Under the pieces are notes generated by a model. That model had not been told where the DNA came from. It worked only from the letters and a program-made list of their open reading frames with translations, and made no database searches. The translations under genes and the position numbers were made by a program. From an uncultured Bifidobacteriaceae bacterium (GTDB taxonomy: Bacteria; Verrucomicrobiota; Verrucomicrobiia; Limisphaerales; UBA11358), in contig CAZHIM010000003.1 in assembly GCA_964532525.1 (NCBI GenBank), positions 4,819 to 68,818 on the forward strand: a stretch of DNA of 64,000 bases. The letters are read 5' to 3'. Shown here piece by piece: positions 40,854-59,737 of the stretch (position 1 is its first letter; each line of letters starts with the position of its first letter).

Positions 40854-41214
40854 CCCTTGCGGATTTTTAAGGAGCCGCCTGATTTCCGCCGGTGAACGGT
40901 TGCTCAAGCGGCGCCGAAAGCCGGCGCGAATGATGAGATCAGTGTCGGAATTGGGTCGTAAGGCGACTCATCGCTTTGGACTATCGACGCCGGATCGCCG
41001 TTGCGGATAGCCTTTATAAAAATAGCTTGATCCAATGCCGCCCCGGCGGCGGGGAAAATCCGGGAACAGTGAATCGCGTTCGCCCCGGATAGCATTGGAC
41101 GAAAGAAACCAACACACCAACCATTTTGCCACGGACAAACCTGCGCCAACGATTCACCGGGCGGCACCGTTTTGGCCATTCACGCATCATTTACCATTGA
41201 ATCATTCAGATCCA

Positions 41215-42663
41215 ATGAAATCATCCTTTTTTAAAGCCGCCGCTGGCGTCCTCTGGCTGGCGGTTGGCTGGGCGTTCTGCTCCTTCGCGGCGCCAACGGC
41301 CCCGCAGCCCAATTATGTGATTATCCTGGCTGACGATTGCACTTTCAACGATTTGGACCTCTACGGCGGCCAGAATGCCCATACGCCAAATTTGGATTCA
41401 TTGGCTTCCCAGGGTTTGGTCTTCAATCATGCTTATCTGGCGATGGCCATCTGCCAGCCGTGCCGCTCGGAGCTGTACACGGGACAATTTCCCCTCCGCA
41501 ACGGCTGTGTCTGGAATCATGCAGCCTGCCGTCCCACCACCCGCAGCCTGCCACAGCACCTGGGCGCGCTGGGCTATCGGGTCGGCATCGCCGGCAAAAT
41601 TGATGTTTATCCCGAGAAATGTTTTCCCTTTGAAGAGGTGCCCGGCTTTGATCGCAATTGTGTGGATAATCCCACGAAGCCGCACACGCTCGGCGGGGTT
41701 CGCGAATTCATCACGCGCAAGGCGGAGCAACCCTTCTGTCTGGTCGTGGGCCTGGTGGAACCGCACGTGCCCTGGGTGATGGGTGATCCGTCCAAGTATC
41801 CTCCGGACCAGGTTAAACTCCCTCCGAACATTGCCGATACGCAGCGAACCCGCAGCGATTTTGGCCGCTACTTGGCTGAAATCACCTACATGGATGGCCA
41901 GGTGGGAGACATTCTGGCCACGCTGGAGGCCACCGGTTTGCAGAGCAACACGCTGGTGTTGTATTCCAGCGAACAGGGCTCGCAATTCCCGGGCAACAAG
42001 TGGACCTGCTGGGACACGGGGTTGCACACCGGCTTGATCGCCCGCTGGCCCGGCCGGGTGCCCGCAGGCAAACGCACCGATGCGATCGTGCATTATGCGG
42101 ACGTGGCGCCAACGTTGGTCGAACTGGCCGGCGGAAATCCAGCGGATAAGAACTACGAGTTTGACGGCCGCAGTTTTGCGGGCGTCTTGTCCGGCAGGCA
42201 GCAGACCCTCCGGAATTATGCCTATGGCATTCACGACAACGTTCCTGAAGGGTCGGCATATCCAAGCCGGACGGTGACCGACGGCCAGTGGCGCTTGATC
42301 CGTAACCTGACCCCCAACGAGCTTTATATCCAGAAGTATGTCATGGGGGCCCAGGGAAACAATGAACTCAACAACCCGTACTGGGGCACCTGGCTCTTCG
42401 TCTCGCCGGATCATCCAAAGACTTATCGCCTGATCAAGCGCTATATGATGCGGCCGTCGGAGGAATTGTATAACACCGCGAGGGACCCGTACGAGCTGAC
42501 CAACCTGATCGGAGACGCGCAATACACAGAGGTGAAAAACCACCTGGGCGCCGAACTGGACCGGTGGCTGGCGTCGCAGGGCGATCCCGGTGTGAACGTG
42601 GACACGTACCGGGTGCTCGGCGAGGCCAGGCGCGGCGTGTTTAACTTCGCTCCGCCGCCATAA
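41215..42663 (+). CDS. Sulfatase (Cys-type, formylglycine-dependent), secreted, ~482 aa
   Basis: ORF 41035..42663(+), start trimmed to ATG 41215 ([25 protein letters not shown] signal). [20 protein letters not shown]...HTPNLDSLA. CxPxR motif C-Q-P-C-R at 41452-41466. Confidence 0.85.
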
Positions 42664-42880: not shown

Positions 42881-43678
42881 ATGAAACACCATATCTGCCA
42901 CAGAAGGCGCGGTTTTACATTGATTGAGTTGCTGGTAGTCATCGCCATTATCGCCATTTTGGCGGCGCTGCTTTTGCCTGCGTTGTCGAGAGCCAAGGAG
43001 TCCGGCAAACGCGCCGTCTGCAAATCAAACATGCGGCAGATTGCCATGGGCGTGCTCATGTATGCAAATGACTATCAAAACAGTTTCCCCCCGGCGGAAT
43101 CGCATTTGGCCTGGGTGCAGATCTATGTCTATCAATACTTGACCACCACAGTGCGGATGTCCACGAACTCACTTGAGTGCCCCGACTATGCGAATTTTAT
43201 TGATCCGTCGTTTGCCGGCAGTCCCGGGATGGTTTATGTGGACACGTCGGTGAATCCGCCCGTGCGCGCAAGGCTTGGCTATTACTCGCTCTGGGGGTTG
43301 AACACCACCACAGATTTGCGGCCAAGAGATTTGAGTTACGGCACGCAGCCCGCCCCATGGGATTCGCCGAGAAAAACCACCGACCAGTTAACGCCGTATA
43401 TGGTGCTGATGGCGGATTTGAGCGAGCAGGGCAGTGGCACCGGCACTCCCTATGGCCGCACCCCGCACACCAAGGCTGGATTGAAGATAAGCAATCTGGG
43501 CTCAATGACCACGCCAACAGCGCTCGGCATGGAAGGGAATAATATCGCGTTGCCGGATGGTTCAATAACGTGGAAAAAAGCCATCACCGCGCTGCCCCAC
43601 ACCGTCAGTCCGTTTGGCGACCCGGTGAACACCCACCAAAGTGATTTCCTCCAAACCACCATCCTGGGCTATTGGTGA
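42881..43678 (+). CDS. Prepilin-type N-terminal cleavage/methylation-domain protein (DUF1559-like pseudopilin-like protein), ~265 aa
   Basis: ORF 42686..43678(+), start trimmed to ATG 42881: [55 protein letters not shown]-terminal [13 protein letters not shown] fits the H-X9-DG-type ending. Confidence 0.8.
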
Positions 43679-43713
43679 CTTATCGTGCGAACTTTTTTCA
43701 GTCTGTAAAACCT

Positions 43714-46700
43714 ATGCGGATATGCACCTTCCTTGGGAGCGCGTTTCTTTTCTGCCTGGCCTTGCCGCCGGTCCAGGCTGCCACCAGGACTTGGTCTGGA
43801 GCGGGAGCTGACGCCTACTGGACGACCGCCGCCAACTGGGGGGGCACCGCGCCGGCGACCAACGACAGCCTGGTTTTCACTGGCACCACCCAGCCGGACA
43901 ACACGAACAACTACTCCAACCTGACGAACAACTGGGTGACCTTCAACAACGGAGGCTTCACCCTCAACGGCAATCTGCTGACGCTGAATGGCGGGTCCGG
44001 CCAGCTCACCAACGCGGCCGGAACCAGCGTCATCAGCCTGTCGTTGCAAATCGCGGGTGGAAATAACAATGCGGTCTGGAACATCGCCGCCGGCTCGGAA
44101 TTGCAGATAGCTGGTCTGGTGACCAACGCCTCCAGCGCCAACCCGCTGGCCAACCTGATCGGTGGCGGCACGTTGCATTTCGTGAGCAATACGGTGAGTT
44201 CGACCCGCATGATAACAACCTACAACGGGGTGTTGCTGGATGATGGCGCAAATGTGGTTATCGCCAATGACGGATTCCGGCTCAGTCCCACGAACGCCTC
44301 GGCGACGGCGGCGGCGGTCATCACCAACAACGGTTTCATCCAAATCGGGGGCAGCTCCAGTTTGCGGATGGGGCAATTGCAAAGCGGCTTGGCGGCCGGG
44401 AATGCGACGGTCAACGTCAGCTCGGGAGAGATTCTGCTGCAGCCGTCGGGGGACAACGGCGCACCCTCTTATGGCGGCTGCATCACGCTGGGCGAAAACC
44501 CGGGCGTGACGGCCACGATCACGCAGAGCGGGGGGCTGGTGTGGTTGAATCCGCTGGCGGGCGTGTCCAGCGATTTGAGCTGTGGCAATCTGATTTATGG
44601 CGGCAATGCGACGGGGAACGGCACCTACAATTTGAACGGCGGCATTTTGATGTTGCGTTCAATCACCAACGCCCACGCGGGCGGCGCGGCTGTGTTCAAC
44701 TTCAACGGCGGCACGCTCAAGCCGGTGGCCAGTTCGACGGTTTTCCTGCCCAACCTGATCACGGCGAACGTGCAGAGCGGCGGCGCGATCATTGACACGA
44801 CCAATTTCAACATCACCATCGCCCAGAATCTGGGCGGTAGCGGCGCGCTAACTTTACTCGGCAGTGGCGTGCTGACGCTGAGTGGAACGGATGGCTACTC
44901 TGGCGGAACGGTGATCAGCAATGGCATGTTAAATGTGACGGGCAGTCTGACGGGTGGCGGCGCTTTGATTGTGGCTGGCGGGACCTTGTCCGGTTCGGGC
45001 GTGATCGCGGGAGCGGTGAATGTCCTGCCGGGCGGTGGCGTGTCACCCAGCGGCGCCGGTGGTGTGCCCACGACTTTGACCTGCCAGAATAATTTCACCC
45101 TTGCGGGCAACCTGGCGATCCAAGTCAACAAGGCACAGTCAGTTTCGAATGACCTGGTGCTGGTCAATGGCGTATTGGCGGGCACTGCCACCGCCACCCT
45201 GACCATGGACAACGCCGGGACATACACGCCCGGAGATACTTTCAAGATATTCAACCAGCCATTGCTCAACGGCGCCGCGATTGCCATAAGTCCCGGCACA
45301 CCCGGCTTGGACCAAACCTGGACCAACCGTCTGGCCATTGATGGCACCATCGGCGTGGTGGGTCAAACTTCCAGCACGGCAGCCAACCTGGCGAACTTGA
45401 CCTTGAGCGTTGGAACGCTTAATCCCGCGTTTAGCTCAAACCTTGTGAGCTACACGGCGAGCGTGGCCTACAGCAATAATTCGGTCACGCTGACCGCCGT
45501 CAGCGCCAACCCGGGGGCGACCATCAAAATCATCAGCGCCGGGACGACCAATCCCGTGGCTTCCGGCTCTCCGAGCAGTCCGATTGCGCTCAACCCCGGA
45601 GTCAACCTGATTGATGTCCAGGTAACCGCCGCCGACGCTTCGACCACGGAGGATTACCTCATCAATCTGACGCGCACGCCGCCCAATGTCATCCTGATCC
45701 TGGCGGACGACCAGGGATTCTCAGACTGGAGCTGTTACGGCAGCGAAATTCACACCCCCAACCTGGACAGCTTGGCGGCCACCGGTCTGCGATTTCGCAA
45801 TTACCACAATGCGGCGCGCTGCAGTCCGACTCGCTGCGCCATTTTGACGGGGTTATATACCCAACAAGCGGCGGTAACCCCGTCGGCTTCGCTGCCGCCG
45901 TTGCGGACGGATAATAACGTGACGATTGCCGAGGTGTTGGGCGCCGCGGGCTACCACACCTATATGGCTGGGAAATGGCATCTGGGCAGCCTGGCCGATC
46001 AGGCCCCGGAACACCGGGGATTTCAGGAAGTATTCACTTACATTAATGGCACGGATGATCACGAAGATGAATGGACGCCTTCGGATTACCGCTTTGCGAC
46101 GACGGACGGGGAGACCACCAACATCACGTATAACTCGACAAATTTCTATCAGCCTGACGCGATTGGCGATTATTGCCTGCAATTTCTGGGCAACCAGTTT
46201 AACCGCCACACCAACTCGCCCTTTTTCATGTATGTGCCCTTCGGTTCGTCGCATTTCTGGATCCAGGCCCCGCAGGCGATGGGGGACACAAATGTGGCGC
46301 TGTATTCAAACGGCTGGGATTTTGTGCGCTCGCAACGTTACACCAACATGCTGGCAAAGGCGGTGCTTGATCCAAGTTATGCCTTATCGCCGAATGAGGG
46401 CACGGCCCCCTGGAGCAGTGTGCTGGCGGAGGCGATTCCCTCCTGGAGCGCCATCAGCACAGCCACGCAAGGCGACCTGACCCGGCGCATGGCTCTTTAT
46501 GCCGCCATGATACAAAAAATGGATGCCAACGTGGGGCGGATTGTTCAATACCTTCAACAGAATAACCAGTTGGACAACACGCTGATCATCGCGCTTTCCG
46601 ACAACGGCGGAAACTATGAGGGCGGGGTCTATGGTTTGACCGGCAGCACGTCGGACGCGCCGCTCAATTCCCCGCTGACGGGCACGGCGCTGGAAAGCAT

Positions 46701-48495
46701 GGGGCAGCCCGGCCAGCCTTACATTTATGTGGGGGGTGGTTGGGCGCATGTGAGCAATACGCCGTTCCGCTGGTTCAAGCATTTTGATCACTTTGGGGGC
46801 ACCGGCACACCCTGCATCATCCATTGGCCGCAAGGCCTTAGCCGAACCAACCAATGGGAAAACGAACAGGGACACATCATTGACGTGATGTCCACGATTG
46901 TGAATGTGACGGGCGCCAGTTACCCGTCACATTGGACCAATGTCATTGACGGCACCAATTATACCGTCCTGCCAATGCAAGGTATCAGCCTGAAACCGTG
47001 GTTCACCACCAATCTAGCGGCCGTGCCCCGCGGTTTGGGATTTGAACACGAAGGAAACCGGGCATACATCAGCAACAACTGGAATCTAGTGACGAAGAAT
47101 TTCACGTCCGTGAACGGCAGCTACTTTGCCAATGAACTTGAGCTTTACGACCTGAGCAAAGATCCGTCCCAAGTCACCAACCTGGCCTACACCAACTTGA
47201 CCGTGCTGGCCCAGATGGTGACAAACTGGAATAACTGGTGCAACTATGTGGGCGATCCAAGCAGTCTGTTGATTACCGCGGTCACCAACCCGCCGCCGAT
47301 TGTCAATATTGACCCGGCGCCCCTGGCGAACGATTTGTTCGTCGACACATTTGACCGCTCAGACGACGGCGCCGTCGCCAACATTCAAGCTAGCGCGACC
47401 GGGATGTGGGGCAGCCTGGTGCCCCCCTTGGGCGCAGACGCGGCGTATTATGAAGGGTACGACGCCCAGTATCTGGAACTGCTCAACAATACGCTGTATA
47501 AGATCCCCGGCGGCATGGTGGAGAGCGGCCTCATGAATAATTTTGTGGGGGCGGACATTCTTACCGCCGGCGGTTTTAGCGTGGAGCTGAATATCTTGGC
47601 CATCAACAGCACCACCGCCGACTCTTCCAACCGCTATGCGGGCTTTGGTGTGGGATTGACGCAAGCGCAGGCCGCCTCCGGGGGCGACATCTACAACCCG
47701 CTGTCTGCCGGGCAAGTCACGTTTCGCGGTCCGGTGGGCGGGGGCGGCAACACGGGGGTGAGTCCGTTCTTCGTGGATTTGGACATGAACGGCAACCTTC
47801 ACGTGTGGACCAACGGGGTGCTGGTGAATACGATTCCGGTCGGCGCCGCCAACGGTATTTTGACCGCCAGCTTTGCCTGCACGGGATTCATGACCAACAA
47901 TCCGGTGGTGGCAAATGTCTTTTTCAACGGTCAGTTGATCAACATCAATCCGTCCGGAACCGATTCCACCGGCATCACTTTTTATTGGCAAACCAACAAT
48001 AACAACTATGTGGGGCTGAGTGCGCGGGCGTCTAATTACAACCAAATGGATAATCTGGCCATTCGCAAATTGCCGCTGGCCAACGAACTCGTGGCTGACT
48101 ACGCCATGGAATTCGGTTTGACGGGCACCAACGCAGCTCCCAATGCTGATCCGGACGGCGATGGCGTGAGCAATTTTGGCGAATGGGCGTTTGGCGGAAA
48201 TCCAATCGTGCCGGATTCCTTCATTGCGGGCTTCAGCGGCTTTCAGGCGCTCGCGGGGAATGATTTCCAGTTTATCTTCCAGCGGTATCGCTACTATTCC
48301 GCCGCGGGCTTGCAATATTATTTTCAGTACTCCCGGGATTTGCGGAATTGGTCTGATTTCACCCCGAATGTGATTTCCGCCAGTGTGAACGAGGACAACA
48401 CCGACTATGAAGTGATGACCATGGGCCTGCCATCCGCCCTTGCCACCGGACAGCAGGCGTTGTTTTTGAGAATCCTGGTCCAGGCCGCAAACTAA
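43714..48495 (+). CDS. Giant secreted fusion: autotransporter-associated beta-strand repeats, cadherin-like beta-sandwich, Cys-type sulfatase, LamG-like region, TSP3-like Ca-binding loop, C-terminal domain; ~1593 aa
   Basis: ORF 43672..48495(+), start trimmed to ATG 43714 (MRICTFLGSAFLFCLALPPVQA). TWSGAGADAYWTTAANWGGTAP, then repeated GGTL...G.G.LTLSG units. ANLTLSVGTLNPAFSSNLVSYTASV (cadherin-like). [32 protein letters not shown] and C-S-P-T-R at 45820-45834. DPDGDGVSNFGEWAFGGNP. Confidence 0.8.
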   Translation: MRICTFLGSAFLFCLALPPVQAATRTWSGAGADAYWTTAANWGGTAPATNDSLVFTGTTQPDNTNNYSNLTNNWVTFNNGGFTLNGNLLTLNGGSGQLTNAAGTSVISLSLQIAGGNNNAVWNIAAGSELQIAGLVTNASSANPLANLIGGGTLHFVSNTVSSTRMITTYNGVLLDDGANVVIANDGFRLSPTNASATAAAVITNNGFIQIGGSSSLRMGQLQSGLAAGNATVNVSSGEILLQPSGDNGAPSYGGCITLGENPGVTATITQSGGLVWLNPLAGVSSDLSCGNLIYGGNATGNGTYNLNGGILMLRSITNAHAGGAAVFNFNGGTLKPVASSTVFLPNLITANVQSGGAIIDTTNFNITIAQNLGGSGALTLLGSGVLTLSGTDGYSGGTVISNGMLNVTGSLTGGGALIVAGGTLSGSGVIAGAVNVLPGGGVSPSGAGGVPTTLTCQNNFTLAGNLAIQVNKAQSVSNDLVLVNGVLAGTATATLTMDNAGTYTPGDTFKIFNQPLLNGAAIAISPGTPGLDQTWTNRLAIDGTIGVVGQTSSTAANLANLTLSVGTLNPAFSSNLVSYTASVAYSNNSVTLTAVSANPGATIKIISAGTTNPVASGSPSSPIALNPGVNLIDVQVTAADASTTEDYLINLTRTPPNVILILADDQGFSDWSCYGSEIHTPNLDSLAATGLRFRNYHNAARCSPTRCAILTGLYTQQAAVTPSASLPPLRTDNNVTIAEVLGAAGYHTYMAGKWHLGSLADQAPEHRGFQEVFTYINGTDDHEDEWTPSDYRFATTDGETTNITYNSTNFYQPDAIGDYCLQFLGNQFNRHTNSPFFMYVPFGSSHFWIQAPQAMGDTNVALYSNGWDFVRSQRYTNMLAKAVLDPSYALSPNEGTAPWSSVLAEAIPSWSAISTATQGDLTRRMALYAAMIQKMDANVGRIVQYLQQNNQLDNTLIIALSDNGGNYEGGVYGLTGSTSDAPLNSPLTGTALESMGQPGQPYIYVGGGWAHVSNTPFRWFKHFDHFGGTGTPCIIHWPQGLSRTNQWENEQGHIIDVMSTIVNVTGASYPSHWTNVIDGTNYTVLPMQGISLKPWFTTNLAAVPRGLGFEHEGNRAYISNNWNLVTKNFTSVNGSYFANELELYDLSKDPSQVTNLAYTNLTVLAQMVTNWNNWCNYVGDPSSLLITAVTNPPPIVNIDPAPLANDLFVDTFDRSDDGAVANIQASATGMWGSLVPPLGADAAYYEGYDAQYLELLNNTLYKIPGGMVESGLMNNFVGADILTAGGFSVELNILAINSTTADSSNRYAGFGVGLTQAQAASGGDIYNPLSAGQVTFRGPVGGGGNTGVSPFFVDLDMNGNLHVWTNGVLVNTIPVGAANGILTASFACTGFMTNNPVVANVFFNGQLININPSGTDSTGITFYWQTNNNNYVGLSARASNYNQMDNLAIRKLPLANELVADYAMEFGLTGTNAAPNADPDGDGVSNFGEWAFGGNPIVPDSFIAGFSGFQALAGNDFQFIFQRYRYYSAAGLQYYFQYSRDLRNWSDFTPNVISASVNEDNTDYEVMTMGLPSALATGQQALFLRILVQAAN

Positions 48496-48555: not shown

Positions 48556-51500
48556 TCAGGTATTTGTCAACGGTGCATGAAACGTCACGGCCGTCCCGTG
48601 GCCGACGGTGCTTTCCCATTCCGCATGTCCGCCGATATGTTCAAGCCGGCGCTTCATGTTGACGACGCCATTACTGAAAGCGGAACTGTTTTGAAGCTCA
48701 ACCCCGCGACCGTTATCTCTGACGCTGATGGCCAGTTCGGTTGATGTTATTGCCACGCGCAAATCCACTTGGGTGGCGCCGGAATGTCGCGCGGCGTTAT
48801 TCAGGGCTTCCTTGAACGCAAGGAACAGGTGATGTCGCGTTTCGGCGGTGAGCAGGACGGCGGGCAGGTCCGGGGGCAGATCGAGGCGCAGGCGGATGCC
48901 GCTCGGGCGGAAGAATTCCTCGGCAAAATGGCCGAGATAATTGACGAGTCCGGCCAGCGTGTCGTTTTTGGGATTGACGGCCCAGACGATTTCGTCCAAC
49001 GCAATGACCACTTCACGGGCGCGGTTCCGCACATCCTGGATCAACTCTTTGGTCTCGCTTGGCGGCGTGTTCTCGCGGTTGGCCAGCGCGCTCAACAGGC
49101 TGATTTGCGTGAGGCTGGTGCCGAGGTCGTCGTGCAAATCCCGCGCAATGCGTGCGCGTTCCTCCTCCATCTCGCGCTGGCGCTCGGCGTGTTCGAGCCG
49201 GCGACGATAACGGTAGCGTTGGATCATGGCTGCTGCGGCGGCAAACGAAAGCAAAGTGAGCAGCGCCAGTCCGGCGCGAAACCACCAGGTTTCGTGGAAG
49301 TAAGGCAGGATGGTGAACAGGAGCGTGTCGCCGTTCTCGTTCCAGATGCCGTCGTCGTTGCAGGCCAGCACCCGGAAGCGATAGTCGCCGGGGGCGAGCG
49401 GACCGTAGCCGATCTCCCGGCGCGGGCCGATGTCCTGCCATTTGGCATCGCCGCCTTCGAGCTCCACCCGGAAGCGGACTCCATCGGGTGCGGTGAAATT
49501 CAAGCCAGTGAACCGGACCTGAACGTAATGCCGGCCGGCGGGAATTTTCAGCGGTGAAACCGGGCCCACGCTCCGCAGCGGCACGCCGATGCGCGGCGGA
49601 AAGGCCATCGGCTTGCCATCCACGAGCATGTCCTCAATGATGACCGTGGGAGGAACCCGGTTGGAAATCGTTCGCGAGGGGTCCACGGAGGCGACGCCGT
49701 TGGCGGTGGAGAACCAGAGATGGCCGTCCGCTGAGCGCCAGCAGGAAGGTTGAAAGCCGCTGGAGCATTGCAACGCAGGCAAGCCGTCCGACTCGCCATA
49801 AACCCGACACGGCAAGCTCGTGGCCGTTCCATCAGCGACGGCGGCCAAATCGGATTTGGCAACGCGAAAAATTCCAGCGTAGGTGCCGCCCCACAAAAAC
49901 CCGTCGCGACTGTCGAGCAGTTGCGAAATGTTATTGTTGGGCAGTCCATCGCTGGCCAGGACGCGGGTGAACCGGCCGTCGCGAAATCGCAACAGGCCGC
50001 CGCCCAGCGTGCCGATCCACACGACGTGGTTCGTATCCGGCAGCACCGCGGCGAAACGGACCGCCGGCCATTCTGCCGGCGGCGTGAAGCGGGAAAACTT
50101 TCCGCCGGCAAAACTCCACAATTCGCCGGGGCCGCTGCCGATCCAGATCGTGCCATCAGCCGCTTCGGCAATCGCGCCCACGGCATGGGAATCCACAAAA
50201 CCATTCTCGCTGTCATAAGTTTTGTAGCCGCCGTTTGTAAAACAGCACAAGTCCACCAACCCCCCGGCCCACATACGGTCTTGACTGTCGCCAAACAACA
50301 CCCGGACCGTGCCCCAGGGTGCGGGCGGATGGGTAATGGTATTGCTGCCATAGTTTGCCAACCCGTGGTTGAGTGACCCCACCCAAAGCGTACCGTCGCG
50401 CGCGGGGAAAACGGTTATGCTCTCATTCGGGTCATTTGCCGAAGCCCCCAGCGACACCGTCTCAAATTGTTCGTTTTTATTCTGCCAGCGCGCCAGGGCG
50501 CCAGACATCGTACCCACCCAGAGGACGCCGTTGGCATCCACGCAGGTGGAACTCACCACCTTGTCGCGCAAGCCGTTGGCGGGGCCAAACACCTGGAAAA
50601 GCCGCTCGCGAATGCGCGCGAGGCCGCCGTCGTGCATTCCCACCCAGACATTGCCCTCGAAATCCTGAAACCAGCAGGTGATGAACCGGCTGGGCAGACC
50701 GGTCTGTTCGTTGAGCAAATGGCTGGAGCCGTCGGATTTGCAATGCCACAAGCCGCGTCCGTACACTATCAGCCAAACATTGCCCTGGATGTCGCCGTGC
50801 AGCGTGACGCTGCCGGGCAGGGGGTTTTTCGGCAGGTCGTCGGAATTGATTTCCGTCACCCACCGCCCGTTGATGGCTTTCCGGAGCCGGTTTTTTTCCA
50901 GCACCCACAGCCCGCCGTCGCCGCTGAAGGCGATTTGTGAAATATTTTCCGGCGGAGGGCCATTGGTCGGCGTGTGATCCAAAAAGTTTTCTCCCTCCCG
51001 CACGATGAGAAGTCGCGACGTTGCAATCCATGGCTTTCCCGCCGCGTCCAAAGCCAGCGCGGAGACATCTGTGTCGTAAAGGGCGTTGGGGACAAGGTTG
51101 AAGTTGGTCCTCGAAAAACATCCAAGCCGATGACCCTCGGTGACGAACCACACAGTGTTGCTTTCATCCTGGCAGAAAGTTCGCGGGTCCGGTCTGATGA
51201 GGGGGCGCGGGTCAAACACCGACCATTGGTTGCCGCCTGGCATATTCAGGAGGGCGAGACAAGGGGACTCTCCGGCAAATAAAACGGAATTCGATTGGAC
51301 ATTCAAAACATGGTCCAAGCGGGCGTGTGGTTCGCTCCGGGGGGGGCGAAACAATTCGAAACGGCCGTCGTAAAACGTACTGACGGATTCATTGCCCATG
51401 AAAATCCAAAGCCGTCCGGTTCGATCCACGCTCAAGTGTTCCACCTGCACGTCTTTCAGCTGCGGCGTGTCGAGCTGGTTGAATGGTGAAAATCGCACGC

Positions 51501-51720
51501 CGTCAAAGCGGGCCAATCCGCCGTAGCGCGTGCCCACCCACAAATAACCATCGGGCGTCTGGGCGATGCTGGAAACCCAGTCGTGTGGCAGGCCCTTGTC
51601 TGTCTGCCATGCCTGCACCAAATAATAGCGTGGTGTGCCCGCTGCCGGAAAATCAGCCGCCGAAGCGTTGGAGAAAATGCCGCAGGCAAGCAAACCGACG
51701 ATGGCTCGAAGATTGGGCAT
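48556..51720 (-). CDS. Sensor histidine kinase: periplasmic two-component-regulator beta-propeller/Y_Y_Y sensor, TM segment, HisKA_3, HATPase
   Basis: ORF 48556..51873(-), start trimmed to ATG 51720 (MPNLRAIVGLLACGIFSNASA). Repeated propeller blades (DGYLWVGTRYGGLARFDG, GNVWVGMHDGGLARI, VVWIGTLGGGLLRFRDG). TM WWFRAGLALLTLLSFAAAAAMI. ARIARDLHDDLGTSLTQI (HisKA_3, NarL-type). ISVRDNGRGV. Confidence 0.8.
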   Translation of the reverse strand: MPNLRAIVGLLACGIFSNASAADFPAAGTPRYYLVQAWQTDKGLPHDWVSSIAQTPDGYLWVGTRYGGLARFDGVRFSPFNQLDTPQLKDVQVEHLSVDRTGRLWIFMGNESVSTFYDGRFELFRPPRSEPHARLDHVLNVQSNSVLFAGESPCLALLNMPGGNQWSVFDPRPLIRPDPRTFCQDESNTVWFVTEGHRLGCFSRTNFNLVPNALYDTDVSALALDAAGKPWIATSRLLIVREGENFLDHTPTNGPPPENISQIAFSGDGGLWVLEKNRLRKAINGRWVTEINSDDLPKNPLPGSVTLHGDIQGNVWLIVYGRGLWHCKSDGSSHLLNEQTGLPSRFITCWFQDFEGNVWVGMHDGGLARIRERLFQVFGPANGLRDKVVSSTCVDANGVLWVGTMSGALARWQNKNEQFETVSLGASANDPNESITVFPARDGTLWVGSLNHGLANYGSNTITHPPAPWGTVRVLFGDSQDRMWAGGLVDLCCFTNGGYKTYDSENGFVDSHAVGAIAEAADGTIWIGSGPGELWSFAGGKFSRFTPPAEWPAVRFAAVLPDTNHVVWIGTLGGGLLRFRDGRFTRVLASDGLPNNNISQLLDSRDGFLWGGTYAGIFRVAKSDLAAVADGTATSLPCRVYGESDGLPALQCSSGFQPSCWRSADGHLWFSTANGVASVDPSRTISNRVPPTVIIEDMLVDGKPMAFPPRIGVPLRSVGPVSPLKIPAGRHYVQVRFTGLNFTAPDGVRFRVELEGGDAKWQDIGPRREIGYGPLAPGDYRFRVLACNDDGIWNENGDTLLFTILPYFHETWWFRAGLALLTLLSFAAAAAMIQRYRYRRRLEHAERQREMEEERARIARDLHDDLGTSLTQISLLSALANRENTPPSETKELIQDVRNRAREVVIALDEIVWAVNPKNDTLAGLVNYLGHFAEEFFRPSGIRLRLDLPPDLPAVLLTAETRHHLFLAFKEALNNAARHSGATQVDLRVAITSTELAISVRDNGRGVELQNSSAFSNGVVNMKRRLEHIGGHAEWESTVGHGTAVTFHAPLTNT

Positions 51721-51955
51721 GAAAATCAAGCGTGTAAGCCGTGTGACGCCAACCTGCAGGGCAAAGCCGCCCGCGTCAATAACGAATTTGCCATCATCAC
51801 TTTGGTTTATCAGGGTCTGCATCATCCCTTCGGACGATTCCCAAAGCGACGCTTTTGGACGATAATCGGCCATACCTTGATTTTACCAGCATTTGTGCCA
51901 GGCACAGAGGGGCAACTGGCTCGGAGAGAAACAGAGATGAATTTACCATCCACAC

Positions 51956-51993
51956 AACCTAAAACTATGAAACGAACCTAAAACTATGAAACG
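51956..51993 (+). repeat. Perfect 19-bp tandem duplication spanning the start codon of the 51986 gene
   Basis: AACCTAAAACTATGAAACG occurs at 51956-51974 and again at 51975-51993. Copy 1 creates a 4-codon mini-ORF (ATG AAA CGA ACC TAA, 51967-51981) ending 4 nt before the main ATG at 51986. Confidence 0.9.
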
Positions 51994-54900
51994 TTCCAAT
52001 GCCATTCGCGTTTTCGTTGCCATAACCGCCATGAGTTTTTCCCTGCTCCAGGCGGATGCCGCCATCCGCACCTGGTCCGGAGCGGGAGCTGACGCCAACT
52101 GGGCGACCGCCGCCAACTGGGGCGGCACCGCGCCGGTGAACGCGGACGTCACCCTGTTCAGCGGCACCACGCAGCAGAACAACACCAACAATATTTCCAG
52201 CCTGTCGTTGAACGGGCTGTCGTTCGCGAACGGTGGTTTTACGCTGAACGGGAATTTGCTGTCGTTGAACGGCCCGATCACCAACTCGGGGGGGACAAAC
52301 ATCCTCTGGCAGGGCGTGAACTCCATCGTTTCGAATCCAACATGGAACCTCGCCGCCGGATCCGAATTGCGCATCGCGGGACAGTTCACGAACAACACGC
52401 TCGCCAATCCGCTCGCCACTTTGGGTTCCGGCGGCGCGTTGCGCATCACCAGCACCAACTGTCTGCCGAACCGCTTTTTCACGCTGACCAGCGGCGTGGT
52501 GATCATTGACGGGGGGACGGTTTCCACCGGCGACGGTTTCCGCTTGCAGCCGCCGAGCGGCAGCACCGCCGTTTTTCAATTGACCAACAACGGCAGCTTG
52601 TCGCTGAACGTTGGCGCCAATTTGCGCTTGTGCCAGACAGCCACGGGGGGCTCGAGCCGGGTGGACATGTCGTCCGGCATTTTGAATTTGGATATCACCA
52701 GCGGCGGGGGCGCCGGTGATTTGTATGTCGGCGAAGCGGCGAACACCACCACGGTGTTCAATCAGAATGGCGGCCTGGTGGAATTTACCGGCAACGGGGA
52801 CAACCGGGTGGCGTTTGCGAATGCCTCGGCCAGCGCGAATGGCACTTACAATTTGAACGGCGGCACGTTGTGGACGGCGCAGATCGCGCAGATCACGGCG
52901 GGTTCGCCGGGCGGCACGTTTAACTTCAACGGCGGGACGCTGAAACCTTTGGTGAGTTCCACGACGTTCTTCCAAGGCGTCCAGTCGGCGAATATTTTGA
53001 GCGGCGGCGCGATCATTGACACGACGAACTTAAGTGTCACGATCGGCGAATCGCTGTCGGGTGCGGGCGGGTTGACCGAACTCGGCTCCGGCACGCTGAC
53101 CTTGACCGGCAACAACACTTACACGGGCGTAACGCTGGTCAATGGCGGGACGCTGGTGACCACGGCGGCATCGTTTCTTGGCAACGGCGCGATCACTGTG
53201 GCCAGCAATGCCATCTTGAGCGTGGCCTTCTCCGGCACGCCGCTGGCCGCCTCCGCCCTGAATTTGGGATCGAGCGTCACCAACACCGTCTCGATAAACC
53301 TGGGCAGTTCGCCCTCGCCGGGCGGCAGTCCGGTGTTCGCGGTGACGAGTCTGAACGGCACCGGGACCGCAATCTTCAACATCAGCGGTTCAAGTTTTGT
53401 TCCGGGAACTTATCCGCTGGTTGCCTACGCCAGCGTGACCGGGGCAAGTTCCTTCAAACTGGGCAGCCTGCCGCTGGGGGTGTCGGGCACGCTGACCCTG
53501 TCGGGAAATGCTTTGAATCTGGTGGTGGCCTATGTGCCGAAGAATTTGGCGTGGAGCGGCGCGGTCAACGCCAATTGGGACACCACTTCTCTCGACTGGT
53601 ATGACTTGAACAATGGGAACAACGCGACCAACTACGCGCAGTCCGGCGGCAGCGGAGATGCCGTGACGTTTGATGACAACGGCGCCGCGAATCCCAACGT
53701 CAACATCGGCATCACGGTGACGCCCTCCCAGGTGACGTTCAACAATAACGCGGAGGCTTACGATCTCTCGGGAACTGGCGCCATCAACGGCGGCACCAGT
53801 CTCACGATGAACGGATTCCAATCCGTGACGCTGGGAACGGTCAATGGCTATTCAGGCGGCACGATCTTAAACGCGGGACCGGTTTATGTAGCCGGCAGCC
53901 AGGCGCTGGGCACCGGTCCCGTAACGATGAATCTGGGCGAGTTGGCCAGCGCCAGCACCGCGGCGGAAACCATTCCGAATACCGTGATTCAGAACGCCAC
54001 CAACGGTGTGATTCTGGGCGACACGGTGAACACCGGCACGCTGAATTTGACCGGTGGATTGAATTTGGGCGGCGGCGCGAGGATATTGGATTTCAACAGC
54101 GACGTGGTGGTGAGCGGCGCGCTGACCAACGGCGGCATCGCGACGAAAACCGGGCCGGGCCAGTTGATTGTCACGGGCCAAGGTTCGATCAACGCACAGG
54201 CAACGCAGACCGGAGGCAACACCATTATCAACGGCGGCAAGCTGGTGCAAACCGGCGATGGCTGGCGCATGCAGGACACGGTTCCCGGCACCATCATGGA
54301 CTTTGCGGTGACGAATGGAGGGTCATTCTTCATGACAAACTTGGTGACCGGGAATTTCCGGCTGGGACTCGCCGGCGAAGACACTTCCACCTCCTACATT
54401 TTGGATGTGGCGGGCAGAACCGTGGTCTATGCCGCGGGCAATCCTGCCGGGGTGGGCAACGTGTATCTGGGTATCGCGGCGCAAAAGGCCACGGTCAATT
54501 TATGGCCGGGCGGCACCCTGATTTGCGGGCAGGTGACTTCGGGTGGCACCTCCGATTCGGAAGTGGATTTCTACGGCGGCACGCTCACGCCCACGTTCAG
54601 CAGCACGGCGTTTTTCCAGGGTCTGACCAATGCCTTTGTGCAAAATGGCGGCGTGACGGTGGACACCACCAACCTGAATATCACCATTGCGCAGCCGCTG
54701 CTGGCGGCCGGCAGCGGCGGCTTGACGAAGCTCGGCGCGGGCACCTTGACTTTGACCGGAGCCAACACCTACACGGGCCCGACCATCGTCAATGCCGGCA
54801 AGCTTGTTTTCGGTCCGGCTCACGCCTCGCCCGGCTCAATCACGGTGAATGCCAACTCGATCCTGGCGTTCCTGCAATCCTCGGCTGGCACCGTGAACGT

Positions 54901-56941
54901 GCCGGGGGTGACCATCGGTGGCGGGACAAATTCCGCGCTGGAGGACGACTTTTCGACCACCAACACTCCGGCCGGCATCATCACCAATCTGGTTTTGAAT
55001 GGTTCGGTGGCCGTTAACGCCAGCGGGCCGGTGTCGGTGGGAGAATTTCCGCTCTTTGGCTACGGCACGATCAGCGGGCCGGGTGGATTGACCCTCGGGC
55101 AGTTGCCGCTGGGCACCGTGGCCAGGCTGGTCACCAACACGGCCGCACACACCATTGACCTGTTGGTGACCGGTATCTCCGAAGCCACTTGGGTGGGCAA
55201 CGTCAGCGGCAATTGGGACACGGTGACCACCAACTGGTTGATGAACGGCACGCCGGTGACCTTTGCCACCGCTGCCAACGTGTTGTTCAACGATGCCGCC
55301 AGCAATGCGGCGGTGAACTTGATCAGCAATTTGTATCCGAGCAGTGTGGTGGTGAGCAATTCCGCGTTGAACTATTCGTTCTCCGGTTCCGGCAGCCTGG
55401 CCGGCAACCTGATTTTGACGAAGAGCGGAACGAACAGCCTGGCGATCAACACGGCCAACACTTTCAGCGGCAACGTGACCGTCAGTGGCGGCGATCTCCG
55501 GCTGGGCAACGCCACCGCGCTGGGGGCGGCGGCGAATCCCGTTTACATCACGAATGGCGCGACCCTGGATATCAACGGGAACGGCCTGGGATTGCAGCCG
55601 GTGGTCGTTTCCGGGGCGGGTGTCAACGGCGCGGGTGCGCTGATCAATTCCGGCGCCGATCAGAACAATGCCTGTCGCAACGTGACGTTGACTGCCGATA
55701 CGACCGTCGGCGGCACCGGTTTGATCGGTTTGCGCACCATGGCGGATTCGGATCCGGGACTGGTTTCGAACGGCCATAACTTGATCAAGGTGGGCACCGG
55801 TGAATTCAACCTCAACGGTGGCACCACGGTCGCCGGCTTGACCAATGTCTGGGCCACCGACCTTGGCAACGTGGATGTGAAGCAGGGAATCCTTTCGTTT
55901 GAACGGCGTTGTGCCTTGGGCCTCACCGGTAACACGCTTACGGTTGAGCCCGGCGCCACGCTCCAACTCTACAGTCTCAATCAAACTCTGCCGGTGCCGG
56001 CGAACCATATTGTCATGACCAATGGGACGCTTCAGGGCACCGGTGCCACGGCGGGTGATGTCAACACCTTGGACGGGACGATCACTCTCAACGGCGCCAG
56101 CAATGCGATCCTGTCCTCGGCCAGCACCGTGCTGGACCTCGATGGCCCCGTTGTTGGCACGGGCGGAGTGACGTTCGGAACCGTCACCCTCGCGGGCACG
56201 AACACTTATACGGGGGCGACGACAATCGCCAGCGGCACCCTCACGCTGGCGTCCGGCGCCCTCTTGACCGGCAGCGTCAGTCTCACCCTCGAGACCAACT
56301 GCGTGCTGGATGTTTCGGCCATTTCGCCCTGGACATTGGGCGCCAACCAGACGCTTGGCGGCATCGGCTCGGTGAATGGCAGCGTCACCGCCAATGGCAC
56401 GCTGGCTCCGGGCGACGGCACCGGCACCCTCACGGTCAACGGCAACCTGACTCTGAACGGCAACGTGCTGGTCGAAGTGAACAAGTTGCTCGCACAGTCC
56501 AATGACCTGGTATCGGTGTCCGGCAGTTTGAACAACACCGGTTCGGGCACCTTGCTGGTGACGAATCTCGGTCCGGCGCTGGCCGTTGGCGACACCTTTA
56601 CGCTCTTCAGCCAACCCGTCACAGGTGGCGGCACGATGAGCGTGCTGGGCGGGGGGGCGAATTGGACGAATAACCTCGCTGTGGACGGCAGCATCTCGGT
56701 GTTGTCCATCATCCCGGCGGGCCCGACTCATCCGGAACCGATTACGGTCACCTCCACCAACGGCGGCCTGAAATTGAATTGGCCGACCATCGGCTGGCGC
56801 TTGGAAGTGCAGACCAACACGCTCGCAAAGGGATTGTACACCAACTGGGCAAATTGGACCGGCGCCACCACGACGAATAATGTGAATATCCCGATCAATC
56901 CGACCAACCCGGCGACATTCTTCCGTTTGGTTTATCCGTAA
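51986..56941 (+). CDS. Giant secreted autotransporter-associated beta-strand-repeat protein with a C-terminal FFRL-type domain, 1651 aa
   Basis: ORF 51986..56941(+). Signal MKRSNAIRVFVAITAMSFSLLQADA. TWSGAGADANWATAANWGGTAP. Many units of the type GGTL.L.G.NTYTG.T.VN.G.L. Ends LKLNWPTIGWRLEVQTNTL...ATFFRLVYP. Confidence 0.8.
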   Translation: MKRSNAIRVFVAITAMSFSLLQADAAIRTWSGAGADANWATAANWGGTAPVNADVTLFSGTTQQNNTNNISSLSLNGLSFANGGFTLNGNLLSLNGPITNSGGTNILWQGVNSIVSNPTWNLAAGSELRIAGQFTNNTLANPLATLGSGGALRITSTNCLPNRFFTLTSGVVIIDGGTVSTGDGFRLQPPSGSTAVFQLTNNGSLSLNVGANLRLCQTATGGSSRVDMSSGILNLDITSGGGAGDLYVGEAANTTTVFNQNGGLVEFTGNGDNRVAFANASASANGTYNLNGGTLWTAQIAQITAGSPGGTFNFNGGTLKPLVSSTTFFQGVQSANILSGGAIIDTTNLSVTIGESLSGAGGLTELGSGTLTLTGNNTYTGVTLVNGGTLVTTAASFLGNGAITVASNAILSVAFSGTPLAASALNLGSSVTNTVSINLGSSPSPGGSPVFAVTSLNGTGTAIFNISGSSFVPGTYPLVAYASVTGASSFKLGSLPLGVSGTLTLSGNALNLVVAYVPKNLAWSGAVNANWDTTSLDWYDLNNGNNATNYAQSGGSGDAVTFDDNGAANPNVNIGITVTPSQVTFNNNAEAYDLSGTGAINGGTSLTMNGFQSVTLGTVNGYSGGTILNAGPVYVAGSQALGTGPVTMNLGELASASTAAETIPNTVIQNATNGVILGDTVNTGTLNLTGGLNLGGGARILDFNSDVVVSGALTNGGIATKTGPGQLIVTGQGSINAQATQTGGNTIINGGKLVQTGDGWRMQDTVPGTIMDFAVTNGGSFFMTNLVTGNFRLGLAGEDTSTSYILDVAGRTVVYAAGNPAGVGNVYLGIAAQKATVNLWPGGTLICGQVTSGGTSDSEVDFYGGTLTPTFSSTAFFQGLTNAFVQNGGVTVDTTNLNITIAQPLLAAGSGGLTKLGAGTLTLTGANTYTGPTIVNAGKLVFGPAHASPGSITVNANSILAFLQSSAGTVNVPGVTIGGGTNSALEDDFSTTNTPAGIITNLVLNGSVAVNASGPVSVGEFPLFGYGTISGPGGLTLGQLPLGTVARLVTNTAAHTIDLLVTGISEATWVGNVSGNWDTVTTNWLMNGTPVTFATAANVLFNDAASNAAVNLISNLYPSSVVVSNSALNYSFSGSGSLAGNLILTKSGTNSLAINTANTFSGNVTVSGGDLRLGNATALGAAANPVYITNGATLDINGNGLGLQPVVVSGAGVNGAGALINSGADQNNACRNVTLTADTTVGGTGLIGLRTMADSDPGLVSNGHNLIKVGTGEFNLNGGTTVAGLTNVWATDLGNVDVKQGILSFERRCALGLTGNTLTVEPGATLQLYSLNQTLPVPANHIVMTNGTLQGTGATAGDVNTLDGTITLNGASNAILSSASTVLDLDGPVVGTGGVTFGTVTLAGTNTYTGATTIASGTLTLASGALLTGSVSLTLETNCVLDVSAISPWTLGANQTLGGIGSVNGSVTANGTLAPGDGTGTLTVNGNLTLNGNVLVEVNKLLAQSNDLVSVSGSLNNTGSGTLLVTNLGPALAVGDTFTLFSQPVTGGGTMSVLGGGANWTNNLAVDGSISVLSIIPAGPTHPEPITVTSTNGGLKLNWPTIGWRLEVQTNTLAKGLYTNWANWTGATTTNNVNIPINPTNPATFFRLVYP

Positions 56942-57804: not shown

Positions 57805-59544
57805 CTAGTCATCAGAATACGCAGTTCGCCTTTCGTCGCCGTGCCCCTTGATGGTTGGACGCACATGCGGAAGGGTGTCGAACGGGATGATATTGCAACG
57901 TTTGGCCCAGGCATCATATAAATCAGACAGCTCTTTTACCTTCTCCGGGTGTGTGGCTGCAAGATTGTTTTGTTCGGTGCGGTCGGCTTCCGTGTCATAG
58001 AGTTCCCACGGCTGTCTGTTGCGCGCGACCAGTTTCCACTCCTGTAGTCGCACAGCGCGGTTGCCTTCATGCTCCCAGAAAGTGGGGGTGGTATCCGGGC
58101 GGGTCATTCCTTTGAAAATCGGGAGCAGGCTTCTGCCCTCAAGGGGCAGGATGGCGTGGCCGGCGTAATGATCCGGGTGTTTTGTTCGGGCAACCTCCAC
58201 CAGGGTGGGCAGGATATCGGTGACATGGGCGAACTGCGCGGACAGTGTGCCGGGATTTTGAATGACGGCCGGCCAATGCACAATAAACGGCGATGCGATG
58301 CCGCCTTCATGCGTGAAGTGCTTGTAGAGCAGGAAGGGCGTGTCGCTCACATTGGCCCAAGGCACACCGTAGCTTTGCCAGACATCCTCCGGCCCGGCGA
58401 AGGCCTTGCTGTTGCCAACTTGAATCTTTCGGCCGTCACGGGTCCGGCTGGGGACATCGTACCACGCCGGTTGAATGACTTCAGCACATCCGCCATTGTC
58501 AGAAAAGAAGATCACCAGCGTGTTTTTCTCGATGCCCCGGTTTTTGAGGGCCTCCAGGACTTTACCCACGCCGCGGTCGAGATGCTCCACCATGGCGGCA
58601 TAGGTGGCCATCCGGTTTGCCTCCCAATTTTTGTTGTGCGCTTCCTCCCATGGCGGCACCCGCGGGTCGCGCGGCGATAACGGCCAGTTTTTGTCAATGA
58701 TTCCCATCGCAATCTGGCGTTGATAACGGTTGGTTCGTGTGACATCCCAGCCGGCGCGATAAATCCGGCGGTATTTGGCAATGTCCTCCTCCGGCGCCTG
58801 CAACGGCCAATGCGGCGCGGTGTAGGCCAAATAGAGAAAGAACGGCTTGGCGCCTCCGGCCAGACGATTGATGCCGGCGACGGCCTTTTCTGTGAGGACA
58901 TCGGTGTAATAAAAATTGGTGCCTGCCGGGCTGACCGGCGTGTTGCCGCATACCAGCGAGAACGGGTCGTAGTAACTGGTCACGCCGTGGATGGTGCCGA
59001 AGTAATCGTCAAAGCCGCGCTGAAGCGGCCAGCTATTTTTATCATCCCAAAACGGCTCGTCAGACTCGTGATTTAATTGCTTTTTGCCGTCGAAATAGAT
59101 GTGGGACAGGTGCCACTTGCCAACCATGGATGTGTGATAGTTTGCCAGGCGCAATTCTTCCGCAATCGTGAGGCAGTGTTGATTCAGCTCGCCGCGGTAG
59201 CCGGGAAGCCCTTGATCTTCCATCATGTTGCCGATGCCAGCCTGCTGCGGGTACAGTCCGGTGAGGAGCGCTGCCCGGGACGGACAGCAGCGCGGCGTGG
59301 TGTAGAATTGTGTCAGCCGCAGGCCTTCAGATGCCAGGTGATCGAGGTTGGGAGTCGAGATTTCCGAGCCAAAACAGCCCACGTCTGAGAAACCAAGGTC
59401 ATCCGCCAATATCAAAACGATGTTCGGAAGCGGATTCGTGTCCGCCGCCTGGCATTTCACGGCCAGCGGGCTCAAGCAGAACAATACCAAAAAACATTTT
59501 CCAAGGAACCCAATACCAGCCAAGGGCTTGCAAATCATAGACAT
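57805..59544 (-). CDS. Sulfatase (Cys-type), secreted, ~579 aa
   Basis: ORF 57805..59622(-), start trimmed to ATG 59544 (MSMICKPLAGIGFLGKCFLVLFCLSPLAVKCQA). PNIVLILADDLGFSDVGCFGSEISTPNLDHLA. TTPRCCPSRAALLTGLY (CxPxR). Confidence 0.88.
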   Translation of the reverse strand: MSMICKPLAGIGFLGKCFLVLFCLSPLAVKCQAADTNPLPNIVLILADDLGFSDVGCFGSEISTPNLDHLASEGLRLTQFYTTPRCCPSRAALLTGLYPQQAGIGNMMEDQGLPGYRGELNQHCLTIAEELRLANYHTSMVGKWHLSHIYFDGKKQLNHESDEPFWDDKNSWPLQRGFDDYFGTIHGVTSYYDPFSLVCGNTPVSPAGTNFYYTDVLTEKAVAGINRLAGGAKPFFLYLAYTAPHWPLQAPEEDIAKYRRIYRAGWDVTRTNRYQRQIAMGIIDKNWPLSPRDPRVPPWEEAHNKNWEANRMATYAAMVEHLDRGVGKVLEALKNRGIEKNTLVIFFSDNGGCAEVIQPAWYDVPSRTRDGRKIQVGNSKAFAGPEDVWQSYGVPWANVSDTPFLLYKHFTHEGGIASPFIVHWPAVIQNPGTLSAQFAHVTDILPTLVEVARTKHPDHYAGHAILPLEGRSLLPIFKGMTRPDTTPTFWEHEGNRAVRLQEWKLVARNRQPWELYDTEADRTEQNNLAATHPEKVKELSDLYDAWAKRCNIIPFDTLPHVRPTIKGHGDERRTAYSDD

Positions 59545-59737
59545 CGAATCAAAGCGGTGTGGCATCAGAGTAAAATGCACGTTGCCGCGCAGCAATCGTC
59601 CAAACCGATGATGGAAGCCCACTCAACGAAATCAAAATTTGGGCGTGCACTTTGCTCCGACCGGTATCATCCTCATGGACGATATGATTAGATTTCGATC
59701 CGGGCATAATGTGTTTATGCCTCTGCGTTCCACAAAT

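Follow-up and report, generated by a model that had tools for sequence, protein, structure and literature searches.

What might a bacterium gain by building a sulfatase into the middle of a giant exported protein? The question is raised by a gene in a 64,000-nucleotide stretch of contig CAZHIM010000003.1 (assembly GCA_964532525.1, positions 4,819 to 68,818), from an uncultured bacterium of the Verrucomicrobiota. This whole stretch is hereafter called the window, and coordinates are those of the window unless a related locus is named. Sulfatases are usually limiting for the breakdown of sulfated glycans, and to our knowledge almost all characterised sulfatases are single-domain enzymes. The original prediction for this gene, hereafter the giant, placed its sulfatase on a long fibrous stalk. 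We consider it likely instead that the giant is an exported, catalytically competent S1_4-like sulfatase whose flanking modules engage the substrate and which desulfates polymers or large oligomers outside the cytoplasm. In this model, a formylglycine-dependent S1 sulfatase would be exported via Sec and would most likely strip sulfate esters off a glycan that is a polymer or a large oligomer, as one of the first steps carried out by the surrounding glycan-utilisation locus. Non-catalytic modules on either side (an autotransporter-associated repeat (PATR) β-helix and a cadherin-like domain in front, a jelly-roll behind) would bring enzyme and substrate together, and a calcium-loop segment with a small sandwich tail would probably hold or sort the protein at the cell surface. 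The features of the gene, with the evidence for each, including AlphaFold2 (AF2) models and their predicted local distance difference test (pLDDT) scores, are:

43714..48495, + strand: whole gene of the modular secreted S1 sulfatase, 1593 amino acids (aa) plus stop (open reading frame (ORF) and translation, orthologues, spanning contigs)
43714..43779, + strand: Sec-type signal peptide, residues 1-22, cleaved between VQA and A (sequence reading; N-terminal helix in the AF2 model)
43780..45357, + strand: predicted parallel β-solenoid, PATR-like, about 525 aa, residues 23-548 (AF2, weak Foldseek matches, sub-threshold PATR, paralogy)
45388..45675, + strand: cadherin-like β-sandwich, residues 559-654, linking β-helix to sulfatase (PF12733; immunoglobulin (Ig)-like strands in AF2)
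45676..47253, + strand: S1 formylglycine-dependent sulfatase domain, both subdomains, residues 655-1180 (PF00884; alignment to PAS; Foldseek)
45820..45834, + strand: formylglycine motif C703-S-P-T-R707 (aligned to FGly51-R55 of PAS)
47332..48078, + strand: predicted jelly-roll β-sandwich without a database model, residues 1207-1455 (AF2 pLDDT >90; Foldseek viral matches)
48079..48234, + strand: short helical segment with the calcium-loop-like DPDGDGVSNFGEW, residues 1456-1507 (AF2 helices; invariant residues)
48235..48492, + strand: terminal β-sandwich of about 85 aa, residues 1508-1593, candidate sorting or anchoring tail (AF2, seven strands, 1508-1591)

The gene is real and conserved. Its open frame runs unbroken from 43672 to 48495, GC content is even over its whole length, and the ATG at 43714 yields the 1593-aa protein with a mid-placed sulfatase that had been read from the DNA, as the ORF and Pfam confirm. 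About 40 full-length orthologue clusters (1557-1604 aa, 50-91% identity, approximately 100% of the query aligned) were found on independent contigs from JGI, ENA, NCBI and Logan, whose labels read Verrucomicrobiota, Verrucomicrobiia or subdivision 3; the closest species-representative genome is only 60% identical in the giant. Breaks in assembly near 45.6 or 47.2 kb had been named as a possible refutation, and none is present at either place. Logan contigs from four runs cover the gene: two wetland metagenome runs each give a contig (18.5 and 18.0 kb) that contains the whole gene without a single difference, a third wetland run supplies short contigs bridging 45401-46599 and 46888-47273, and a soil run from a different study supplies strain-variant contigs bridging 45444-46191 and 47043-47592. 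Because contigs from independent runs bridge both suspected junctions and about 40 orthologues are collinear, the giant is no chimera. By the same contigs, its organism is an uncultured Verrucomicrobium living in wetland or soil. The sole short close homologue examined, P0018 (994 aa), was considered as a natural sulfatase-only variant and rejected, as it is one part of a giant split in its assembly, where the adjacent kinase gene is split too. In that ENA contig (locus L049, 5235-9985 and 817-3839), the giant is divided into a 569-aa PATR ORF and the 994-aa sulfatase ORF. These splits look like assembly frameshift noise, which would make some short homologues, P0018 among them, artefacts. Scans for promoters and terminators around the gene gave scores no better than those of shuffled sequences.

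We next consider whether the sulfatase could work. Pfam assigns residues 657-1067 to PF00884 (Sulfatase, E 2.6e-53) with a weak SGSH_C match besides, and NCBIfam returned sulfatase models only, every score being far under the equivalog cut-off. An AF2 model of residues 640-1593 (pLDDT 91.8, predicted template-modelling score 0.72) shows a two-subdomain sulfatase fold to about residue 1180, with pLDDT there of about 95. The domain aligns end to end with Pseudomonas aeruginosa PAS (1HDH, E 6e-66) and with BT4683 (7ALL, E 1.6e-65), which lead the PDB by about 40 orders of magnitude, the remaining subfamilies scoring around 1e-28 or weaker. Foldseek gave template-modelling scores of 0.85 to PAS and 0.83 to BT4683/7ALL, with sulfatases only among the matches listed. 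Each catalytic and metal-binding residue is kept over this full-length alignment; PAS and BT4683 differ from the giant in being single-domain enzymes of about 520-540 aa, at 28-30% identity to its catalytic domain. PAS residues D13/D14, FGly51, R55, K113, H115, H211, D317/N318 and K375 correspond to D665/D666, C703, R707, K754, H756, H847, D963/N964 and K1022 of the giant, and each of these counterparts is either invariant or conserved to at least 90% among 36 orthologue sequences, in which C703, S704, T706 and R707 are invariant. The Cys-type motif C-S-P-T-R stands exactly at 45820-45834, as had been read, and the lack of catalytic residues on full alignment, which had been named as a second possible refutation, was not found. 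With its metal ligands, formylglycine motif, and catalytic Lys and His all kept, the domain is, as far as sequence can tell, almost certainly active. To an assembly chimera or a pseudo-enzyme we therefore assign next to no probability, both junctions being bridged by independent runs, about 40 orthologues being collinear and the catalytic residues being all invariant.

PAS is a member of SulfAtlas subfamily S1_4, and S1_4 is our best available guess for the giant, which we call S1_4-like provisionally. BT4683 is classed under S1_4 (PMC10154620) and is an endo-acting 3S-Gal (3-sulfated galactose) sulfatase with an open cleft (PMC10154612). For the giant, too, we infer endo-type action on its glycan. 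The original prediction had seen a difficulty in formylglycine formation on so large an export substrate. The maturases FGE and anSME need only a short linear CxPxR motif, which they modify while the chain is still unfolded and has yet to be exported by Sec; with so short a recognition site, the size of the giant poses no special problem.

The protein begins with the signal peptide MRICTFLGSAFLFCLALPPVQA, cleaved before A, which is of Sec type, without a lipobox and without twin arginines; the region is weakly conserved among orthologues. The prediction had described the first approximately 560 residues as PATR repeats, and this holds at the level of the fold only. An AF2 model of residues 1-660 from a homologue alignment (pLDDT 86.8) is a continuous all-β solenoid of short strands that begins near residue 24, ends near 550 and gives way to an Ig-like sandwich. 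Against the PDB, Foldseek found only weak matches for this model, to the autotransporter passengers Ssp, Ag43, EspP and Hap (E 0.009-0.05). By Pfam, PF12951 is present in orthologues, and in the giant itself a single PATR repeat is seen (residues 379-408, 22.7-23.7 bits), under the cut-off of 27; Pfam at E 10 on the isolated β-helix and phmmer of residues 23-654 against the PDB returned nothing useful and nothing, respectively. The cadherin-like β-sandwich in front of the sulfatase was predicted correctly, with PF12733 matching residues 559-654 well above threshold (E 7.6e-15, 55.6 bits versus a cut-off of 24.2). The β-helix has a paralogue further along the window:

51986..56941, + strand: PATR β-helix giant, 1651 aa, paralogue of the sulfatase giant's N-terminal module (PATR E 1.4e-19)

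By BLASTP, residues 13-421 of the sulfatase giant are 46% identical over 411 residues to the N-terminus of this PATR giant, and residues 375-549 are 36% identical to its last solenoid turns. The 5' ends of the two β-helix genes share a near-identical island of 64 nucleotides (43792-43855 versus 52073-52136), at which the same Logan contigs find a second placement. With both N-termini 46% identical over 411 residues, the island is, by this comparison, a locally homogenised patch inside true paralogues.

Behind the sulfatase, the original prediction had placed a LamG-like region. AF2 models residues 1207-1452 as a β-sandwich of about 13 strands. Foldseek against viral models listed, below a few viral sulfatases, proteins named 'LamG-like jellyroll', 'Concanavalin A-like lectin/glucanase' and 'putative lectin', and phage tail proteins (E 1e-5 to 1e-6); these matches cover 210-270 columns and carry no query coordinates, and were allotted to the jelly-roll by size and fold type. 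A Concanavalin A-like jelly-roll fold is therefore plausible for residues 1207-1452 on the strength of the model, and to that extent the prediction stands. At the level of sequence it found no support: Pfam at E 10 on the isolated C-terminal 421 aa gave nothing useful, with no PF13385, NCBIfam or PDB-sequence match; a 35-sequence profile built from the C-terminal 409 aa found chance hits only among PDB sequences (adenovirus fibre knob, E 0.01); and when the C-terminal profile was compared by hhalign with the Laminin_G_3 domain that the window itself encodes, the probability was 0.2. Mean identity among orthologues is 0.54 in the β-helix, 0.47 in the terminal sandwich and 0.69 in the sulfatase, and the jelly-roll, at 0.66, is conserved nearly like the catalytic domain (66% versus 69%).

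Searching 1.84 billion representative proteins with the C-terminal profile, we obtained 5321 hits at E<=1e-3, 355 at <=1e-10 and 101 at <=1e-30. The jelly-roll (profile positions about 10-257) also occurs N-terminally in proteins with Ig, Laminin_G_3, F5/8 type C, dockerin or PATR domains, and forms stand-alone proteins of about 290-315 aa composed of signal peptide, jelly-roll and PEP-CTERM (P0179, P0193, P0200, P0225, P0239 and others); PEP-CTERM model TIGR02595 scored above its cut-off in two of the five tested. The unit of calcium loop and terminal sandwich (profile positions about 265-393) is found on its own as the C-terminal end of other proteins; the calcium-loop segment is repeated in other giants, in up to 15 stretches (P0187). 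Judged by these profile matches, the C-terminal region is built of separable modules.

The jelly-roll is also where a bifunctional enzyme has to be weighed, in which it or the β-helix would be a second catalytic domain cutting the backbone beside the desulfated sugar. The β-helix fold is typical of polysaccharide lyases and of hydrolases of the glycoside hydrolase (GH) 28 type, and the jelly-roll fold of enzymes of the GH16 and polysaccharide lyase 7 types. Six polar residues of the jelly-roll are invariant across distant members (D17, R21, N82, N237, R244 and D252 in domain numbering), secreted copies stand alone, and a fusion of sulfatase and glycosidase has a precedent in Formosa agariphila P36, with S1_25 and GH78 (PMC8511951). 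However, neither module of the giant matches a CAZy-type Pfam family, the other partners of the jelly-roll are the binding and adhesion domains listed above and no enzymes, and several copies may occur in one protein, as is the case for carbohydrate-binding modules. The counterpart β-helix of Amuc0953, a sulfatase of Akkermansia muciniphila, was moreover inactive on pectins, xylans, glycosaminoglycans and gastric mucin (PMC13524802). P36 is comparable to the giant in being a multimodular polysaccharide-utilisation protein with an S1 sulfatase (PMC8511951), but its partner is a recognised GH78 rhamnosidase that performs the next pathway step, whereas the giant's partners match no catalytic family. 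A second catalytic activity is in our judgement quite unlikely, and substrate-engaging modules around a single active site remain the preferred reading, with glycan binding presumed for both the β-helix and the jelly-roll.

Comparison across the family bears on what the N-terminal part is for. Distant relatives (41-52% identity), including proteins of Luteolibacter, Haloferula and Kiritimatiellales, match residues of about 650-1593 only, that is, the sulfatase, the jelly-roll and the tail, and their unannotated N-terminal region of about 270 residues is a second copy of the jelly-roll. In Luteolibacter luteus P0059, for example, one copy spans residues 14-265 (29% identity, E 1e-16) and the other 894-1153 (46%), and an N-terminal jelly-roll is found in most of loci L015-L035, some with several copies. 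The ground plan in Luteolibacter and Haloferula is, as read from these alignments, jelly-roll, sulfatase, jelly-roll and tail. A much closer relative, P0014 (1321 aa), shares 80% identity with the giant over residues 556-1593 and carries a jelly-roll instead of the PATR β-helix; two contigs independent of each other hold it, one of 206 kb from forest soil and one from Logan. Because relatives carry a jelly-roll in this position and the giant's N-terminus is paralogous to the PATR giant, the window's clade has exchanged an N-terminal jelly-roll for a shortened PATR solenoid and a cadherin-like domain. A jelly-roll takes the place of the β-helix in P0014, in cultured Verrucomicrobiaceae and more widely in the family, so the N-terminus is most likely an interchangeable targeting module for the substrate, not a stalk.

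The stalk model would have the β-helix act as a rigid spacer of about 12 nm, anchored to the cell, that holds the sulfatase off the surface, and the N-terminal 525 residues do fold in our model as a long β-solenoid like the rod-like passengers of autotransporters. Classical type Va autotransporters (Ag43, EspP, Hap) share with the giant a passenger-type N-terminal β-solenoid, and PATR is present in its orthologues; however, their C-terminal 12-stranded β-barrel is absent from the giant, which has no PF03797 match and ends in an 85-aa sandwich of seven strands. Lacking a C-terminal β-barrel translocator, the giant is not an autotransporter. The β-helix is N-terminal behind a cleavable, non-lipoprotein signal peptide without a lipobox and so is a free end, and the only candidate anchor is C-terminal, which would put the β-helix at the outer end, beyond the enzyme as seen from the cell. 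Together with its replacement by a compact jelly-roll in relatives and with the mucin binding of the equivalent Amuc0953 domain (PMC13524802), these features make a stalk very improbable. Given that the β-helix ends freely and that a compact domain of lectin-like type can stand in for it, targeting or capture of the substrate is the better supported role.

At the C-terminus, the calcium loop and terminal domain were found as had been predicted. DPDGDGVSNFGEW occupies residues 1479-1491 (48148-48186) with AF2 helices around it at 1456-1505, and D1479, P1480, D1481, D1483, N1487, E1490 and W1491 are invariant in the 36 sequences; the seven-stranded sandwich follows in the AF2 model. In the stand-alone proteins, the last jelly-roll strand (DNL.I..IPEP) leads directly into PEP-CTERM, and in the giant the equivalent strand (MDNLAIRKLPL) leads into the calcium loop and tail. 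Because the same strand precedes PEP-CTERM in relatives and the tail in the giant, the tail occupies the slot of a known sorting signal, which hints at a role in surface anchoring. The alternative is that the giant is a released soluble exo-enzyme or a periplasmic enzyme and that the tail is structural or calcium-stabilising and neither sorts nor anchors. In its favour, the tail matches no known sorting signal: PF18962, TIGR04183 and TIGR02595 gave no match at the C-terminus, Pfam at E 10 on the last 141 aa gave nothing useful, and hhalign of the C-terminal profile against the PATR giant's tail gave a probability of 0.2 or below. On the other side, the tail invariably closes the protein and has been passed to other proteins as one unit, it stands in the PEP-CTERM slot (a positional argument only), and Amuc0953, with a comparable C-terminal domain (CTD), is cell-bound (an analogy only). 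We judge release or periplasmic residence to be rather unlikely, and surface retention via the tail the more probable fate. Four other exported giants in the window share a tail of about 50-75 aa (L.L.WP ... L..W ... FFRL/FYRI) at 10127-10351, 16874-17098, 40626-40850 and 56714-56938. The giant's terminal sandwich resembles these tails at the level of motifs only; kinship was examined by pairing 'S.DL..W' with 'T.L..PW' and was not established (hhalign probability 0.19).

The closest design among known proteins is that of Amuc0953 (PDB 9S8X), a 1263-aa sulfatase active on 3S-LacNAc/LNB (3-sulfated N-acetyllactosamine or lacto-N-biose; Nat Microbiol 2026, PMC13524802). It consists of an N-terminal parallel β-helix, a small β linker, an S1_20 sulfatase, abutting PA14 and Ig-like domains, and a final CTD resembling those of the type IX secretion system (T9SS) (PMC13524802). 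The β-helix binds colonic mucin and has no detectable enzymatic activity, and sulfatase activity is absent from the medium, indicating that the protein is cell-bound (PMC13524802). The giant belongs to the same phylum and has the same order of signal peptide, β-helix, linker, S1 sulfatase, abutting sandwich and small CTD, as judged by AF2 and Pfam for the giant and by published description for Amuc0953. However, homology is limited to the sulfatase domains (E 2e-16, residues 641-972 versus 467-806), the giant being S1_4-like and not S1_20, with a PATR-type helix in place of the Akkermansia-restricted type and a cadherin-like linker. It also has a jelly-roll of about 250 aa and not PA14 and Ig, a DPDGDG calcium loop before the tail, and a wetland or soil origin versus the gut. 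By analogy, the giant may work like Amuc0953, but it lies outside its family, the resemblance being one of design.

Several points weigh against the reading of the giant as a surface-held, substrate-capturing sulfatase. No metatranscriptome (RNA) run was found to carry the gene. The tail has no sequence similarity to T9SS CTDs, to PEP-CTERM or to the 9S8X sequence, and its comparison with the FFRL-type tails of the window was not significant. The S1_4 placement reflects best hits at 28-30% identity and not a tree. No FGE or anSME is encoded in the 64-kb window by Pfam annotation of its genes, the sole radical-SAM gene (10508-11470) lying next to a glycyl-radical enzyme. Finally, the β-helix and the jelly-roll could be catalytic modules instead of binding ones.

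These data suggest that the design of gut Akkermansia, a binding module followed by a sulfatase and a tail, is a general Verrucomicrobial solution, used in soil, wetland and freshwater lineages with exchangeable targeting modules. The principles of sulfatase biology are unchanged, as the design is a known one, here with a PATR β-helix as head and an unmodelled jelly-roll. Three modules for which databases hold no model or a marginal one, namely the jelly-roll, the calcium-loop tail and the PATR head, are delimited here, and cultured carriers of the family (Luteolibacter luteus, L. pohnpeiensis, Haloferula luteola and H. sargassicola) open binding, specificity and sorting to direct testing. A bolder proposal, which we hold doubtful, is that the jelly-roll constitutes a new carbohydrate-binding (or catalytic) family for sulfated glycans, defining 'flanked' sulfatases across the Verrucomicrobiota, and that the tail is a PEP-CTERM-equivalent cargo tag for an undescribed route of surface display, in the PATR-bearing clade maybe involving the DUF1559 pseudopilin encoded next door. 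That gene and the other near neighbours are:

41035..42663, + strand: S1 sulfatase of ordinary size, two genes upstream (PF00884 E 1.5e-38)
42881..43678, + strand: prepilin-type N-methylation/DUF1559 gene, ending 35 nucleotides upstream of the giant (PF07963, PF07596)
48556..51873, - strand: convergent sensor kinase (Reg_prop, Y_Y_Y, HisKA_3 and HATPase by Pfam)
57805-59622, - strand: 605-aa sulfatase; tblastn against related loci gives about 37% identity to the catalytic domain in orthologues of the giant

The pseudopilin-like gene is unique in the window. Of nine PATR-type orthologous loci, seven have it directly upstream; no non-PATR locus of the family does. We therefore rejected it as a constant companion of the whole sulfatase family, its association being with PATR-type members only. 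In three loci (L049, L050 and L051), a jelly-roll gene takes its place. The kinase, likely the glycan sensor of the locus, keeps its adjacency in ten related loci (L001, 3, 5, 6, 9, 10, 14, 30, 49 and 50), and the PATR giant is syntenic in five (L001, 3, 6, 9 and 30). The upstream sulfatase at 41035-42663 has a 77%-identical orthologue at the same place in L002. On the far side of the kinase are the PATR giant, a NarL-type regulator, the second extra sulfatase and a GtaA-like (α/α)6 protein; upstream lie LamG/Ig giants, GH51-like proteins, an L-fucose isomerase, a transporter, LutABC and an aldolase-type (fucose/PVM) microcompartment. Pfam, the signal peptide and these neighbours agree with the proposal that the sulfatase forms part of a large multidomain exported protein in a locus for the utilisation of sulfated glycans or fucose. 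The context points to a sulfated glycan with fucose, galactose or arabinose, presumably a polymer, as the substrate.

Several smaller observations concern these loci. The 605-aa protein at 57805-59622 is a second PAS/S1_4-like paralogue, of which a 42-45%-identical copy adjoins the giant in several related loci. In L050 (13279-16363), a GH95 gene and a small F5/8 type C protein lie beside a jelly-roll-headed variant of the giant. GH95 is a family of α-L-fucosidases and galactosidases, and these neighbours would fit a fucosylated or galactosylated substrate. Loci L014 and L022 (CAZKMR01 contigs), from a metagenome-assembled genome titled 'uncultured Bifidobacterium sp.', hold an orthologue (52% identity) beside the same kinase and regulator genes, and a second family member; the title almost certainly results from an error in binning or naming, the genome being that of a Verrucomicrobium. 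Within the window, the region 10508-19608 holds the glycyl-radical enzyme with its activase and, next to them, two large DUF1080 (3-keto-disaccharide hydrolase-like)/GH51-like arabinofuranosidase proteins. The ORFs at 13709-17101 and 16936-19608 overlap by 166 nucleotides, and the start of the second probably lies further downstream.

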